Shown piece after piece: positions 2,809 through 26,812 of a DNA stretch of 64,000 nt; the first letter of the stretch is position 1; every line of letters begins with the position of its first letter. Location of the stretch: the IMG/VR virus record IMGVR_UViG_3300027996_003878, one strand, 5' to 3'. Origin of the DNA: a virus. Taxonomy: Duplodnaviria > Caudoviricetes. The translations under genes and the position numbers were made by a program. The notes under the pieces were generated by a model. The model was given only the letters and a program-made list of their open reading frames with translations. It had not been told where the DNA came from and did not search any database.

Positions 2809-3710
2809 GTGATGAGTAAGTTTAATAAAGTTGTGGGGAACACGCCGTTAATAATGATTAATGAACGTGTATACGGAAAGCTTGAAACATACAACCCAAC
2901 AGGTTCCGTAAAAGATAGAGTGATAAGCTATATTGTTGATGAAGCAGTCTCTAATAATATAATAAATAATAAAACAATTCTCTGTGAGGCAACAAGCGGT
3001 AATCAGGAATTGCCCTTAGCGCTATAGCTGCATCATTAGGTTTAAAATGTAAAATATTTATGCCATCCAATATGTCAGATGAGCGTAAAAAAATGATGAA
3101 GGTCTTCGGATCAGAGATAATCGAATCACCTCCAAACGATTTTGAGCATGCAATTAATTCTCGCGACCAATTCATATCCAAGACAGAAAACGCCTGGTCT
3201 CCGATGCAATTTAGCAACCCTAAGAACATCGAGTGTCACCGAAAAACAACGGCACCAGAAATTTGCAAGAACGCTTGCGGAATTTCAAAAAATCTTAGCG
3301 CATTTATACACGGCTCAGGTACCGGCGGAACAATAGAGGGAGTAAGGCAATTTTTTCAAAACAAAGACCCAGTTAGATGTTGGGGTAAATGTCAGTATAA
3401 ATCAAGCGAGCAAAGCCCTAAAATAATAATGGTAGTGCCAGACGAAGAGATACATGGAATACAAGGTATCGCTGATGGGAAAGATTTTCTAGCCAAATCA
3501 TCAGACATGGATGAGGTGATTAGAATTACAACACAAGATGCGATTGACAGGGCAAAACTTTTTGCAAAAGAGACAGGTATACTCGTCGGGATAAGCTCAG
3601 GAGCAAACATTTTAGCATCCGAAAGATGGGTTAAAGAAAACGACCCAGACGGAATAGTAATCACTATTCTATGTGATCGAGGCGAAAGGTATATGTCTAT
3701 TTATAATTAA
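2809..3710 (+). pseudogene. cysK: Cysteine synthase (PLP) split by a single-base deletion near 3003
   Basis: VGNTPL, KLETYNPTGSVKDR, EATSGN in ORF 2809-3027. Adding one base restores TGIALSAIAASLGLKCKIFMPSNMS in frame with 3060-3710 (GSGTGGT, VGISSGAN, LCDRGERYMS). Confidence 0.9.
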
Positions 3711-3928: not shown

Positions 3929-4786
3929 TTAATTTTTAAATTTAAAAGAAGACTCGTGTAATGTTTGGCGAATTAATCTCTTCTTTCTTTTTTTTGCTAA
4001 AAAGGCATCCATAGAGCGTAATTCAACAACTAATAGTCGGCTAGGCGAGCCACAATCTAGCATCATGAATTCTTCTCTTATTAAAGGCTTATAACTTGAA
4101 CTGCCTAATTTTACCAACTCCTTATAATTGGCGCCGGCAACAATTGTTTTACCACTTAATGCACTTACTTTCTCGCCCATACCAATGCTTCTAATTACAC
4201 TAGTGCAAAGCTTCCTATCAAAAAACAAGCTCTGGAAAGAGCTGCCTTCCAGATCTTTATCTAAATCTAAGCCAGCATGTACAAAAATATAATCCTCTAA
4301 ATGGTAGTAATTAATTGTATGATTTATTAAAAAATTAACATGAACTTCGGGTATTAAATTTAATATCCTGTCAGTCGTCAAACAATGAGGGTTTACATCT
4401 GATACGTTAAATCTTTTAAGATACCCAGAGATAGTCTCGTAGCCGCCACTACGAAGCCAAACGCTGATTGCATCCTCGCTGCACTCAAACGAAAATGGCT
4501 TGTCAATGACACCTAGCTTCCTTAAAATACACGCCTCTGTCGCGCCTCTTAAAAAGACAACCCTATCACCAAATTTCTCTTTTATGTCAATTAAATAATC
4601 AAAAACATAAGCAGATTGCTCTGTTTTGCCTGTATAATTGCCTAAAAATACTAAAGTATCATTGCCGCCATCGCTCTTACGTAGCGGTAAGATTCGAGCA
4701 CAAATATTTTTTAATAAATCTAAAGAGCCGCGTATATCAGGAATTACATATATGCAATTCAGAAAGGACGGACGCCACTTACTCAT
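3929..4786 (-). CDS. Calcineurin-like (Ser/Thr phosphatase family) protein with degenerate metal-binding motifs
   Basis: YVIPDIRG / FLGNYTGK / FLRGATE / FVHAG align to DxH / GDxxDRG / GNHE / HAG. Confidence 0.8.
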   Translation of the reverse strand: MSKWRPSFLNCIYVIPDIRGSLDLLKNICARILPLRKSDGGNDTLVFLGNYTGKTEQSAYVFDYLIDIKEKFGDRVVFLRGATEACILRKLGVIDKPFSFECSEDAISVWLRSGGYETISGYLKRFNVSDVNPHCLTTDRILNLIPEVHVNFLINHTINYYHLEDYIFVHAGLDLDKDLEGSSFQSLFFDRKLCTSVIRSIGMGEKVSALSGKTIVAGANYKELVKLGSSSYKPLIREEFMMLDCGSPSRLLVVELRSMDAFLAKKRKKRLIRQTLHESSFKFKN

Positions 4787-5319: not shown

Positions 5320-6819
5320 TTAACATCTCTTTTTTCTAACTTCTCTTTTTTTATTGTTTAATCTAAAATAAACGCTATCAACTATTTGCCTCCTGATTCG
5401 TTGCAAGAATACAAGACTATCTATCTCATAATGTGATGGAATTCTAAAATGAGTTACATGAACCGGAGTTCCCGGCAACACAGTGTCATTCATAGATATC
5501 TTAGAAAAACTATACTCTTTTACAGCGCCCATTAAAGATTCCTCAGCGTCTAGGCTCTTTACATCTATAAGCCTACCAATAAAACAAGGCCCATAATCCT
5601 TAAACTTTCTACCACCAATATATTTTTCTTCGGTTTTGTTTGGAATTGTTCTTTTTTCAGTGACATGAGCCTTAAACTCACTGATGCCTAAAAACAATGC
5701 TAAATTAGGATCTGTTAAAGAGACAATATCAATTGTTTCGCCATTTTTTACAATAGAGAATGGCAAGTAATTTTCAACTAATTTTGAATATTCTTGAAAA
5801 ATTCTTGCATGGATAGGAAAATCTGCCGTTTGATGTTTTAAATGAACAAGATAAGAAATCATTTCTTCTGGAAAGTTTGCAAGCATTATCTTAAATGCTT
5901 CGTACATCAACTTCTTCTTCACAAAGGTAGACTTGTTCTGATTTCTTGATATTAATCTAATTTGATTTTCGATGACATCTTTAAGGACATCATGCTCACG
6001 TATGAATCTTTGCTTATGCTCCAACTGATCGTCAGCAAAAACGATTTTATAATCTGTTAAAGTATCCTCAAGCGTAAAATCGCCTCCGTCACCTTGGTTT
6101 AAACTGAAATTAAGGCTTAAAATATTTCTTGAAAATTGCTTAGTGGGGTGACTTTTTTTATCTAAATTATAACTTGCCCCGCAGTAAGAGCAATTAATGT
6201 AAGGGCAAGAGACACCAAACTCTGTCGCAGATGATTCAGGAATAAACCGGACGCATTCTGGACAGCGATAGCCTTTCTTGGAATGCTTAACAAAGGCCCT
6301 ATGAAGCATGAGTCTAGACTCCAGAGAGGCCTTTTCTTCAACAGATGTAACTCTATCAATTTTATTCGAAATGATATTTATTTCTTTCGCACACTCCTTA
6401 CACCGAAAATACTTTCCATCTTTATCAAGCCTCTCAATTTTTCCATAACACCTACAAGCGGGACATATAGGGGCAGTGACTTTTTCTTGCGTATTATTTT
6501 CTTTGTAAATTTTTATTGGAAGAATATTAATACATTTTAATAAGTATAAATTTAAATCTCTTCCGTCCCTCCAATGCTGTAATTTACAAAAGAAAACATA
6601 AAGAGCATTTCTAAGCTCTTGCTTTGCTCTTGCTCGAAACGAGCGTAACAAACTTTCCGGTACCTCGTCCGACAATTTTAAATTGTAAGCTTTGTATATC
6701 AAACGATCTATTTTCGACTTATACAATTCAAAAATATCATTTAATATCCAATTATCTATGTCGTTTTCAGTAATTTTATCGATAATTTGATTAAGCTTGA
6801 AAAAAATATTGTCAACCAT
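5320..6819 (-). CDS. Divergent sigma-factor-like protein with inserted Zn ribbons (likely start 6819, not 6918)
   Basis: Region-2-like AKQELRNALYVFF..RDLNLYLLKCI; CPAC, CKEC, CPEC and CPYINCSYC clusters; region-3.2-like LSLNFSLNQGDGGDFTLEDTLTD. The upstream in-frame ATG is separated by a terminator hairpin. Confidence 0.55.
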   Translation of the reverse strand: MVDNIFFKLNQIIDKITENDIDNWILNDIFELYKSKIDRLIYKAYNLKLSDEVPESLLRSFRARAKQELRNALYVFFCKLQHWRDGRDLNLYLLKCINILPIKIYKENNTQEKVTAPICPACRCYGKIERLDKDGKYFRCKECAKEINIISNKIDRVTSVEEKASLESRLMLHRAFVKHSKKGYRCPECVRFIPESSATEFGVSCPYINCSYCGASYNLDKKSHPTKQFSRNILSLNFSLNQGDGGDFTLEDTLTDYKIVFADDQLEHKQRFIREHDVLKDVIENQIRLISRNQNKSTFVKKKLMYEAFKIMLANFPEEMISYLVHLKHQTADFPIHARIFQEYSKLVENYLPFSIVKNGETIDIVSLTDPNLALFLGISEFKAHVTEKRTIPNKTEEKYIGGRKFKDYGPCFIGRLIDVKSLDAEESLMGAVKEYSFSKISMNDTVLPGTPVHVTHFRIPSHYEIDSLVFLQRIRRQIVDSVYFRLNNKKREVRKKRC

Positions 6820-6883: not shown

Positions 6884-6915
6884 AAAAAAAAGCCGAGATA
6901 TGACCTATCTCGGCT
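6884..6915 (-). terminator. Intrinsic terminator downstream of ftsK
   Basis: Perfect 10-bp stem AGCCGAGATA/TATCTCGGCT, 5-nt loop, followed by a T8 tract on the minus strand. Confidence 0.85.
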
Positions 6916-6981
6916 CATTGTCGTAACTCGACTAAAGCATAATGCACGTATAACAAATACACAAATTCATTATTTTTTCAT

Positions 6982-7992
6982 CTAAGGCGCTATGTAAGCT
7001 GATTGAAACCGTACCTCTCCAAGCGAGGGGCTAATTAAAATGGCATCACCCTTACCCGCCAACAATTCGGCCCCTGGCCGGTCGATGATAACCTGAGAGT
7101 CCACTCTAGAGCTTGTACGGCACGCAATTCGTGCAGGAAAGTTCGCCTTAATTAGGCCCGTCAAGATGTCAACTGAAGGCCTCTGCGTCGCCACAATAAT
7201 ATGAATTCCGCATGCTCTTGATTTCTGAGCAATTTTAACAAGAAGTCTTTCAAATAAATTATTCTTATCATCCGTAATTAAATCAGCCACTTCGTCAATT
7301 ACAATTAATATTTTTGAAAACAAGTTAGGCTTTTTCTTCAAGTCATTGACTCCACGCCTACTCATGATCGCATATCTTTTTTCCATTATTTTTTGGATTT
7401 TTTCAAGCATTTTTATTGTCGCATTAAGATCATTGCAAATTACTTTCGCCTTGCGTTTATAAGAAGAAAATTCTACACGCTTAGGATCTACCAAATACAA
7501 ATCAATATTCTGAAAATTCAATGCATTATAAATTAGGTTATGCAAAAGAACGCTTTTGCCAGAACCCGTTGTACCTGCAATTAGCAAATGGGGGTTATCA
7601 CTCATATCCAAATGCAATGGCATACCGTGATCTGTCTCTCCAATAACAAGCGGGAAAAAACCTCTTAAATTATTACGCTCACGCTTGTACAGTTCTTTGA
7701 GACATAGGGCCTTAGAGTCCCCACGAGTTCCCTGAAGCCGAACAACCCCTTCTTCAGGGATTAGTTTACATGTCAGATTAGATTTTGTTTTTAAATACAA
7801 AGAGATTTCATCTATATATTTTTTAATCTCAGCTACACGATGGCCAGTTTTAATCATCGCATCATAGCTAACAAAATGACGATGCTCTCGTGCATTAACA
7901 CAAACAGCGCCGATCTTAAAAGACTGAAACGCTTTATTTAACTCCAACCTCATTGCAGAACTCATGACAGCATCGCAACCTTTCCAGACCAT
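6982..7992 (-). CDS. ftsK: FtsK/SpoIIIE motor-domain ATPase (no membrane or gamma domain)
   Basis: PHLLIAGTTGSGKS, LVDPKRVEF, IVIDEVADL, RACGIHIIVATQRPS, ANFPARIA, GAELLAGKGD. Confidence 0.9.
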   Translation of the reverse strand: MVWKGCDAVMSSAMRLELNKAFQSFKIGAVCVNAREHRHFVSYDAMIKTGHRVAEIKKYIDEISLYLKTKSNLTCKLIPEEGVVRLQGTRGDSKALCLKELYKRERNNLRGFFPLVIGETDHGMPLHLDMSDNPHLLIAGTTGSGKSVLLHNLIYNALNFQNIDLYLVDPKRVEFSSYKRKAKVICNDLNATIKMLEKIQKIMEKRYAIMSRRGVNDLKKKPNLFSKILIVIDEVADLITDDKNNLFERLLVKIAQKSRACGIHIIVATQRPSVDILTGLIKANFPARIACRTSSRVDSQVIIDRPGAELLAGKGDAILISPSLGEVRFQSAYIAP

Positions 7993-10984: not shown

Positions 10985-11467
10985 TTATGCCAATGGTCGT
11001 TTATCCCAATTTTCACCCTTAACAATCGGGCGGCTAACATTATCCTCAATGCGAGTTATTATACCATGCCTCCACAGCCACTTTATGGCGGTATAAGACA
11101 CCTTATTCTCCTTGACGCTAGTAACCTCATCCATAATATCTCTTGGGGTCACATAAGAAGGGTGCTTTTCTTCAATAAATGTACAAATTTTTGCACACAA
11201 ATTTCTCATATAATCATCAAGCTTATTTTCAGGAATATTAAAATCTAAAGCCGGAGATCTGCCCTCCTCGGCCCCTCTAGCCTTACCGCCTAAAGTTCTG
11301 ACAATTGAATTAAGCTTTAATTGACGATTTCGAAGCTTTTCTATTTCAAATATTTCATTATCAATATCTTTAATTTCTTTCTTAGCACACTCACAGATTT
11401 CATGCGGCGCTTTTTTACCAATACTAATACACTCATTCATATACTCTAAAAGAAAACTATCAGACAT
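10985..11467 (-). CDS. Hypothetical protein, coiled coil plus possible winged helix
   Basis: GGAG RBS; C-terminal TPRDIMDEV..AIKWLWRHGIITR is wHTH-like. Confidence 0.6.
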   Translation of the reverse strand: MSDSFLLEYMNECISIGKKAPHEICECAKKEIKDIDNEIFEIEKLRNRQLKLNSIVRTLGGKARGAEEGRSPALDFNIPENKLDDYMRNLCAKICTFIEEKHPSYVTPRDIMDEVTSVKENKVSYTAIKWLWRHGIITRIEDNVSRPIVKGENWDKRPLA

Positions 11468-11485
11468 TTTTCCTCCAAAAAAAAG

Positions 11486-11986
11486 TTAGCTCAACTCAGC
11501 AAGTTTAAAAATAGATTCATAAAGATAAGGACAATCGTTACAAGAAGACCATTCTATACCTAAATAATTAAACCTATCAATCACAGATAAAACATTAGCT
11601 TGCGTGAATGTATCAACATCAAACCACATTTCTTTATTTTCATCCAGAACGATGAATTTGTTATCTACAGACCCATCGGGTAGATTAAAATCACAACTCA
11701 AAGCCATTATTTTAGAATCATCCAAGCAAATCCCAAAAAGAAACTCGGAACTGTCATCAATAGATAAATCAACGAGACACCCATGAAATATAGAGTCCCC
11801 GAGATCTATCCTAGCTGTATAAACAGCATGAGCTACGTCACCAGAACCATCGTATGTTAATACCAACTCTTGGTTTGGCAACCGAAAAGTTGGATCAGCC
11901 AGCCCGCGACCACTAACCCCCTTAGCGCTAACCCCTACGCAATTTAAAATATGCTTAATTATTTCATTCTTTAAAAAATGATTCAT
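11486..11986 (-). CDS. Hypothetical protein
   Basis: 166-aa ORF overlapping the upstream stop (ATGA). Confidence 0.65.
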   Translation of the reverse strand: MNHFLKNEIIKHILNCVGVSAKGVSGRGLADPTFRLPNQELVLTYDGSGDVAHAVYTARIDLGDSIFHGCLVDLSIDDSSEFLFGICLDDSKIMALSCDFNLPDGSVDNKFIVLDENKEMWFDVDTFTQANVLSVIDRFNYLGIEWSSCNDCPYLYESIFKLAELS

Positions 11987-25951: not shown

Positions 25952-26812
25952 CTACGGGCTAATATTTTTTCGTATGCAGTATCTGTGGAGTTTATCTTTC
26001 ACTTTCTTTTCAATTTGCCTGATTCTTTCTTTTGTTAAGTTGAGTTTTAATCCAATTTGTTCAAGTGTTTCTGGCTCGTCGCTTGTCATCCTCTTTTCTA
26101 AAATTAATAATTCAGCATCATTTAGAGATAGTTTAAATTTATTTATGTTTTCTTTTAAAATTAAAATATTTTCTAAATTTTCAAATATTTTTTCTGGTGT
26201 GCCTGACTCTCTGGCGCTAAGTTTTTCTAAAGAGTTTATTAAACCATTGCTGTCGTCTTCATTATTGTTGGACGAAGTGTCTAAGCTAAGCTCCGGCGAC
26301 GATAGTCTTTGTTCCATTTCAGAAAGCTCTTGCACTTTGACGTCAAGTCGTGCTGCAAGTTGCTCCTGCGTTAGAGATATGCCTTGGCCCTCTAGCTTTG
26401 CTTTTTCTTTTTTTAATACATAAAATAGCTTTCTTTGCGCTTTGGTAGTTCCGATGCGAACTAAATATGTAGACTCAAGTGTATATTTTAAAATATAGGC
26501 TTTAATCCATCCCGCCGCATAGCTTCCTAAGGGGACTCCAAGATACGGGTTAAATTTTTCAATGGCTCTCATTAATCCAAGAGTGCCTTCTTGAATTATA
26601 TCTAGGAAATTTTCTGAATTAAATTTATACTTACTTGCTATTTTGATGACTAGTCTTAAGTTGTGGTAGACTAATCTTTCTTTAGTTTTTTCATCTTTAG
26701 TTTCGTAATAAAAAGAAGTTAATTGTAACTCTTCTCCTTTTGACAATACTTTATATTCGCTAACTCTTTTAGTATAAAAATTTGATAGAATTGCTTTTTT
26801 TGAACTATGCAT
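25952..26812 (-). CDS. rpoH: RpoH/sigma-32-like sigma factor
   Basis: NLRLVIKIA, DIIQEGTLGLMRAIEKF, RpoH box RIGTTKAQRKLFY, TLEQIG....TKERIRQIE. Confidence 0.88.
   Translation of the reverse strand: MHSSKKAILSNFYTKRVSEYKVLSKGEELQLTSFYYETKDEKTKERLVYHNLRLVIKIASKYKFNSENFLDIIQEGTLGLMRAIEKFNPYLGVPLGSYAAGWIKAYILKYTLESTYLVRIGTTKAQRKLFYVLKKEKAKLEGQGISLTQEQLAARLDVKVQELSEMEQRLSSPELSLDTSSNNNEDDSNGLINSLEKLSARESGTPEKIFENLENILILKENINKFKLSLNDAELLILEKRMTSDEPETLEQIGLKLNLTKERIRQIEKKVKDKLHRYCIRKNISP

Follow-up and report, generated by a model that had tools for sequence, protein, structure and literature searches.

The subject of this analysis is a 499-aa protein whose gene is a single-copy core gene of a clade of uncultured huge phages. 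Its predicted layout is an N-terminal helical domain, most probably a homologue of sigma domain 2, followed by two C4 zinc ribbons joined by a helical hairpin, a flexible linker, and a long C-terminal domain. As a working interpretation, held tentatively and at somewhat less than an even chance, the protein may be a highly derived factor of the sigma-70 lineage, bound to the host RNA polymerase (RNAP) and having a promoter-specificity role there.

Gene, family, and genomic setting

The whole stretch of DNA analysed, referred to below as the window, is 64,000 nt long. It includes genes for ClpP, an FtsK-like ATPase, two canonical sigma factors, MoxR/VWA, GlmS, and PurA, and one tRNA; several of its upstream regions have TTGACA/TATAAT-type promoters and Shine-Dalgarno sequences. 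Coordinates of the main features are collected in Table 1. Several of the listed bacterial relatives of the 286-aa canonical sigma are annotated as sigma-32/RpoH, and a compact sigma of 204–224 aa is found in the related phage loci L023–L025.

Table 1. Positions of the gene, the domains it encodes, and nearby or related features. The last column gives the majority-residue frequency for each protein segment.
Feature	Position	Strand	Description	Frequency
Gene for the 499-aa protein	5320..6819	(-)	stop codon 5320-5322; start ATG 6819	
N-terminal helical domain, residues 1-111	6487..6819	(-)	predicted sigma-domain-2-like fold; less conserved; missing in short relatives	0.40
Zn ribbon 1, residues 112-145	6385..6486	(-)	C119-P-x-C122 ... 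C140-x-x-C143; Cys conservation; beta hairpins in model	0.47
Helical hairpin joining ribbons, residues 146-177	6289..6384	(-)	model helices 141-156 and 160-177; length 14-40 residues	0.33
Zn ribbon 2 module, residues 178-231	6127..6288	(-)	F..HS.KGY.C186-P-x-C189.RFIP.S ... C205-P-Y..C210 ... HP	0.53
Flexible linker, residues 232-261	6037..6126	(-)	pLDDT 66-78; opens with [LIV]-S-L-[DN]; length 14-43	0.27
C-terminal domain, residues 262-499	5323..6036	(-)	helical bundle 262-352 and 467-488; barrel 353-462; basic tail	C-helices 0.48; barrel 0.54; tail 0.56
Intrinsic-terminator-like hairpin, between the FtsK-like and 499-aa genes	6890..6916	(-)	11-bp stem, 5 GC pairs, T-run	
GTCGAG box, 5' of the 499-aa gene	6927..6932	(-)	113 nt upstream of start, just before terminator hairpin	
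FtsK/SpoIIIE-like ATPase, 336 aa, motor only	6982..7992	(-)	PF01580 E 1.5e-32; phrog_1358 E 1.4e-71	
Canonical sigma-70-family gene, 410 aa	23298-24530	(-)	long N-terminal extension before region 2	
Canonical sigma, 286 aa, sigma32/RpoH-like	25952-26812	(-)	about 41-46% identical to listed bacterial relatives	
GTCGAG(AG), relative L007	5128-5135			
GTCGAG(AG), relative L008	5121-5128			
GTCGAG(AG), relative L012	5153-5160			
GTCGAG(AG), relative L017	5197-5204			
GTCGAG(AG), relative L020	5151-5158			
GTCGAG(AG), relative L021	5149-5156			
GTCGAG(AG), relative L022	5188-5195			

The gene lies in a minus-strand open frame of 532 aa running from 6918 to 5320, for which the ORF list gives two candidate starts, ATG 6918 (532 aa) and ATG 6819 (499 aa). 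The latter is taken as the start because homologues align from residue 34–38 of the 532-aa frame and no earlier, because the 90% cluster of the 499-aa protein also includes a 499-aa gene call, and because ATG 6918 is covered by the terminator hairpin (6916–6890, minus strand). The 532-aa reading is spurious on the same grounds, and the coordinates given in the initial annotation were right. Residue numbering throughout is that of the 499-aa protein. Judged by its sequence, the hairpin is a terminator of typical intrinsic type, and would end the upstream FtsK-like gene.

The family is known from metagenomes: all of its members are metagenomic. HMMER, run exhaustively on 1.84 billion representatives, yielded 227 clusters (207 at E <= 1e-10), and a word-indexed search yielded 158 family clusters at 90% identity. 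The architecture is common to about 230 sequence clusters, and the phage contigs that carry them reach 459 kb; the cluster of the 499-aa protein itself is located on a 296-kb contig. None of the 158 clusters carries a functional annotation, most being unnamed or “hypothetical protein,” with generic automatic labels on two JGI entries. In IMG/VR, relatives are carried by 16 viral contigs of 26–459 kb. These were detected in a pattern scan based on a close 14-sequence alignment, used in place of the full alignment, which is too diverse for scan patterns; patterns from the single protein gave no match.

Searches elsewhere added little. No family match was found by tblastn in 50,697 cultured-phage records, and no relative by pattern scan in 185,579 bacterial and archaeal species genomes; full-text literature searches found no published description of the protein. 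The 499-aa protein and 66 relatives match no family in Pfam, PHROGs, or NCBIfam, and nothing past generic Zn-ribbon noise. The sole Foldseek match in BFVD is an uncharacterised 211-aa fragment of the same family.

In the genomes of five relatives, of which three are 96% complete or better, the gene is present in one copy, along with one or two canonical sigma genes. Neither RNAP beta/beta' genes (PF00623, PF00562) nor a DFDGD-coding motif was found in any of the five. The clade therefore relies on host RNAP, and any sigma-like factor in it must use that enzyme; a phage-encoded RNAP partner was rejected for the same reason.

Gene order is similar in 19 related loci: ClpP ... DUF192 ... (FtsK-like) ... 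499-aa-type gene. DUF192 is upstream in all 19, and in 11 the FtsK-like gene is the upstream neighbour, between DUF192 and the 499-aa-type gene. In loci L002 and L003, the FtsK stop overlaps the start of the following gene by 4 nt; in the window, the terminator separates the two. FtsK was rejected as an obligatory partner, since it is missing there in the other eight loci. Frequent neighbours in relatives are HU, a DksA/TraR-type zinc finger, a phosphatase, and topoisomerase I. The FtsK-like ATPase of the window lacks both a membrane part and a gamma domain. Genes like it are found in 333 cultured-phage records, most of them from phages of Bacillus and Mycobacterium; in Bcp1 and LittleE, the two records inspected, the neighbours are different.

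Domain architecture and natural variants

The domain boundaries in Table 1 are based on an alignment of 66 diverse members and on an AlphaFold2 model (pLDDT 93, pTM 0.56). The four Cys clusters pointed out in the initial annotation are real, making up two CxxC...CxxC sets (C119/C122 with C140/C143, and C186/C189 with C205/C210) that are conserved across the 66 homologues; each of the eight Cys is invariant or present in at least 90% of them. Two CxxC pairs on beta hairpins, the arrangement characteristic of a C4 zinc ribbon, are thus found twice by alignment and model together, as predicted zinc sites. In the Zn ribbon 2 module, G183, C186, C189, P194, and C205 are invariant in the 66 sequences, with F176, H179, S180, F192, S196, P206, C210, H224, and P225 nearly so. 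When PDB sequences were searched by phmmer and with the full-length and C-domain profiles, the C-domain had no match; the full-length profile gave one borderline match, of Zn ribbon 1 to a TFIIE-alpha Zn ribbon (E 0.011).

The linker is on average acidic, with a mean net charge of -2.1 (range -6 to +3). At its start, S is found in 54 of the 66 sequences, L or I in 56, and D or N in 48; the rest is mostly poorly conserved.

The long C-terminal domain first noticed as a feature of the open reading frame is likewise genuine, and is among the best-conserved parts of the protein. Modelled alone, it reaches pLDDT 94.6 and pTM 0.89. Its barrel is an insertion of about 107 residues, after which come a final helix and the basic tail (mean net charge +5.6). 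Structure searches gave no clear known fold for this domain, and by Foldseek against the PDB neither it nor the whole model had a match at E <= 0.001.

Natural variants lack one part or another. Forms of ~320 aa start directly at Zn ribbon 1, without the N-domain, and in forms of ~410 aa the N-domain is shorter; one relative, P0235, keeps the N- and C-domains and has no ribbons. Since the short forms and P0235 all retain it, the C-terminal domain, usually with ribbon 2, is the invariant core. In L003, which has a ~320-aa form, the FtsK gene abuts, so that there is no room for a separate N-domain ORF, and none is detectable; nor did a profile search turn up any small relative of the N-domain standing alone. 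True sigmas cannot do without domain 2, their best-conserved core. The forms without an N-domain are the main argument against a classical sigma; they weaken that reading, and favour an RNAP modulator or some other DNA-binding role.

Relationship to sigma factors and rival explanations

The protein was originally called sigma-like in part because of a region-2-like helix (residues about 66–98). This helix is part of a helical domain that is modelled with confidence, and sigma domain 2 accounts for most of the domain's best PDB matches. Structural likeness to sigma domain 2, on which the proposal had been made to depend beforehand, was found: when the AlphaFold2 model was compared with 48,161 PDB representatives, 15 of the best 50 matches listed were confined to residues 1–111, and 12 of these 15 are sigma domain 2, T4 gp55 included. 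The predicted structure has the helical bundle of the sigma-70 domain 2 fold (regions 1.2–2.4). Searches of the ESM Atlas point the same way. The top row of a shape search is a Sigma70 r2/r3/r4 cluster. In a feature search with residues 1–111, 19 of 30 matches have the Sigma70_r2 family set in common (best scores 0.93 and 0.92), and a further 10 fall in a family-less set whose best cluster is viral and auto-named “sigma-70 region 2 domain-containing.” In a structure search with the Atlas's own, poor model, Sigma70_r2 clusters take up five of 10 rows (TM 0.55–0.61).

At the sequence level, no HMM or profile-profile comparison of the family with any sigma was significant. The region 2 signature (PF04542 or NCBIfam sigma models above cut-off) is absent from the family, in the 66 members even at E 10 and in the relatives' genomes. 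By hhalign, the N-domain profile gave a probability of 0.4% against T4 gp55 (no sequence relation) and 0.1% against a sigma32-like profile, and nothing was found against the two sigmas of the window. Short of significance, the N-domain profile matches SigW region 2.1 (E 0.024) in roughly the register of the structural alignment, and one family member matches the NCBIfam RpoD and RpoS models (0.0035–0.015). The missing Pfam sigma match is uninformative, because a bona fide sigma, T4 gp55, used as a control, itself reaches only E 0.087 against Pfam Sigma70_r2. On the basis of the predicted structure, we regard it as quite likely that the N-domain is a sigma-2 homologue; if so, sigma-2 modules can escape HMM libraries and be recovered by structure prediction alone, as here. 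The description “sigma-like” thus stands for the predicted fold; for the protein as a whole, given marginal sequence profiles and short forms without the domain, a sigma function is putative. The narrower proposal of a late-gene sigma found no support.

The whole-family profile was also compared by hhalign with a sigma32-like alignment of proteins related to the window's own sigma. The single best alignment is on the linker, where SLDxP at the start of region 3.2 is matched, continuing into region 4.1 (E 0.002, probability 14%). With the small sigma of the relatives, the highest-ranking alignment falls on the corresponding part of the linker and is insignificant. These alignments are suggestive of the linker as a candidate counterpart of sigma region 3.2. 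A finger-like segment had been proposed at this point from the sequence (residues 233–255). Its start, [LIV]-S-L-[DN], is kept in the family and coincides with the weak region 3.2 match, but the acidic string quoted for it is not conserved, and the segment is modelled with low confidence.

The C-terminal domain has no sigma-4 helix-turn-helix detectable by Pfam (PF04545 or PF08281) or by hhalign against the sigma32-like alignment, and in Atlas feature searches Sigma70_r4 clusters appear at 0.79–0.82, below the level that counts. A sigma-4-like role might still be assigned to it from its position, with the CTDs of phiKZ gp68 and AR9 gp226 as precedent.

If the protein is a derived sigma-70-lineage factor, its N-terminal sigma-2-like domain would dock on the clamp helices of host RNAP beta', and the double zinc-ribbon module would substitute for sigma domain 3. 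The acidic [LIV]-S-L-[DN] linker would thread the active-site cleft and the RNA-exit path, as sigma region 3.2 does, and the C-terminal domain (bundle, beta-barrel, and basic tail) would occupy the position of sigma domain 4, contacting the flap and upstream DNA. The host enzyme would thereby be redirected to a class of phage promoters. Polymerase binding, the course of the linker, the part played by the C-terminal domain, promoter specificity, and the timing of any such switch are what we infer here. Two further observations count against a sigma: the majority-residue frequency of the N-domain is 0.40, vs. 0.47–0.56 for the Zn ribbons and C-terminal domain, and at least two canonical sigma genes are already present in the window.

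Both of these also speak for an RNAP-binding modulator that is not a specificity factor: conservation is higher in Zn ribbon 2 and the C-terminal parts than in the N-domain, and the canonical phage sigmas could provide promoter recognition. Ribbon 2 and the C-terminal core might then sit near the flap, dock, or RNA-exit region, with the sigma-2-like domain as an optional anchor competing with host sigma for the clamp helices, in host shut-off or co-activation. T4 gp33, AsiA, and lambda Q are models for polymerase-bound modulators. The short forms, which drop the N-domain and retain the ribbon 2/C-terminal core, are in keeping with such a role, as are P0235, with its N- and C-domains and no ribbons, and the DksA/TraR-type RNAP binder encoded in the same conserved gene block of relatives. 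In every search run, however, the C-terminal domain and ribbons were unlike gp33, AsiA, or Q, and we consider a modulator unlikely.

The consistent sigma-2 matches would be left unexplained, as a coincidental or recycled fold, if the protein were instead a zinc-ribbon DNA-binding partner of the FtsK-like translocase, acting in sequence recognition or loading when the genome is segregated or resolved, or when host DNA is handled. The FtsK-like gene is also missing from eight of the loci, the 499-aa-type gene being always present; a terminator lies between the two genes in the window; and cultured phages have FtsK-like genes without such a partner. Even with a motor that has no gamma recognition domain of its own, the immediately upstream and sometimes overlapping position of the FtsK-like gene, and the two Zn ribbons of the protein and its strongly basic tail, this seems quite improbable. 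Least credible is a virion or assembly protein, for which the resemblance of the C-terminal beta-barrel to the barrels of phage neck, adaptor, and tail proteins can be cited; we give it hardly any weight. A small share of the probability is assigned to none of these readings.

Returning to a derived sigma factor, the nearest compact members of the sigma-70 family are ECF (group 4) sigmas, SigW, AlgU, and SigK among them, and SigI-type sigmas (8i24). Unlike these, the 499-aa family has no Sigma70_r2, r4, or ECF HMM match, adds two Zn ribbons and a helical hairpin after domain 2, and ends in a 238-residue barrel-bearing C-terminal domain, while its N-domain is dispensable in some relatives. The late sigma T4 gp55 (7d7c/7d7d) consists of domain 2 only; at 185 aa, it differs from the 499-aa protein in having neither Zn ribbons nor a C-terminal domain, and in requiring gp33 and the gp45 clamp.

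phiKZ gp68 and AR9 gp226, each a sigma-like fifth subunit of a jumbo-phage non-virion RNAP, are highly diverged from bacterial sigmas (PMC7618050). They resemble the 499-aa protein in size (about 460–520 aa) and in its proposed layout, in which an NTD takes the sigma-2 position, a linker mimics region 3.2, and the CTD at the sigma-4 position is enlarged. They differ in being permanent subunits of phage split beta/beta' RNAPs, for which the five relatives here have no genes, and the available portions of that paper note no Zn ribbons in them (PMC7618050). Neither is among the structural matches listed for the 499-aa model.

A putative initiation factor with C4 ribbons next to its helical domain also recalls TFIIE-alpha and TFIIB. 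The TFIIE-alpha ribbon is the best PDB sequence match of the family profile, borderline and Cys-driven as it is; in contrast to TFIIE-alpha and TFIIB, the 499-aa protein has no winged-helix or cyclin domains. The TFIIE-like ribbons noted in some jumbo phages belong to phage groups and to proteins different from those considered here (Iyer et al., 2021, PMC7824862). It is rather doubtful, if conceivable, that the family represents a new class of bacterial-virus initiation factor, made up of a sigma-2 module, tandem zinc ribbons, and a non-HTH C-terminal domain. Such a class would, with the same degree of doubt, combine bacterial sigma logic (clamp-helix docking and a 3.2-like finger) with zinc-ribbon docking of the TFIIB/TFIIE type in reprogramming host RNAP.

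The gene sets with which huge phages reprogramme their hosts are large and mostly lack annotation. To our knowledge, transcription control in huge phages is understood only for phiKZ-like phages, with a polymerase of their own, and T4-like phages, with gp55/gp33/gp45; a working sigma-like factor of the present kind would be a third solution. It would also widen the structural range of the sigma-70 lineage, zinc ribbons replacing domain 3 and a barrel-bearing domain replacing domain 4, and with it a core gene of a widespread clade, phages of 200–460 kb, would acquire a name and a role open to testing.

Upstream sequences and adjoining genes

The GTCGAG box 5' of the gene is the one intergenic occurrence of this hexamer in the 64-kb window. 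In seven relatives (Table 1), with proteins only 37–45% identical, a GTCGAG(AG) box is found 57–76 nt before the start codon of the homologous gene; in L017, L020, and L021, a -10-like TATAT(A/T) follows about 35–45 nt after it. The box may be an operator or activator site for the 499-aa gene. Genome-wide enrichment of GTCGAGAG and the GTCGAG box was looked for in relatives and none was found, so GTCGAGAG was dropped as a regulon motif.

Some neighbouring genes are also of note. In the window, a cysteine-synthase (PALP-type) gene at 2809–3710 (+) appears split into frames 2809–3027 and 3060–3710, pointing to a frameshift or an internal stop, or to a pseudogene. Downstream of the 499-aa gene, at 3929–4786 (-), is a calcineurin-like phosphoesterase gene whose Pfam match (E 0.0017) is below the cut-off, and which is a conserved neighbour in 10 of the 19 related loci. 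In L002, a 344-kb relative, a gene for ribosomal protein S21 (11431–11778) is found near the block containing the 499-aa-type gene, adjoining a topoisomerase I gene.
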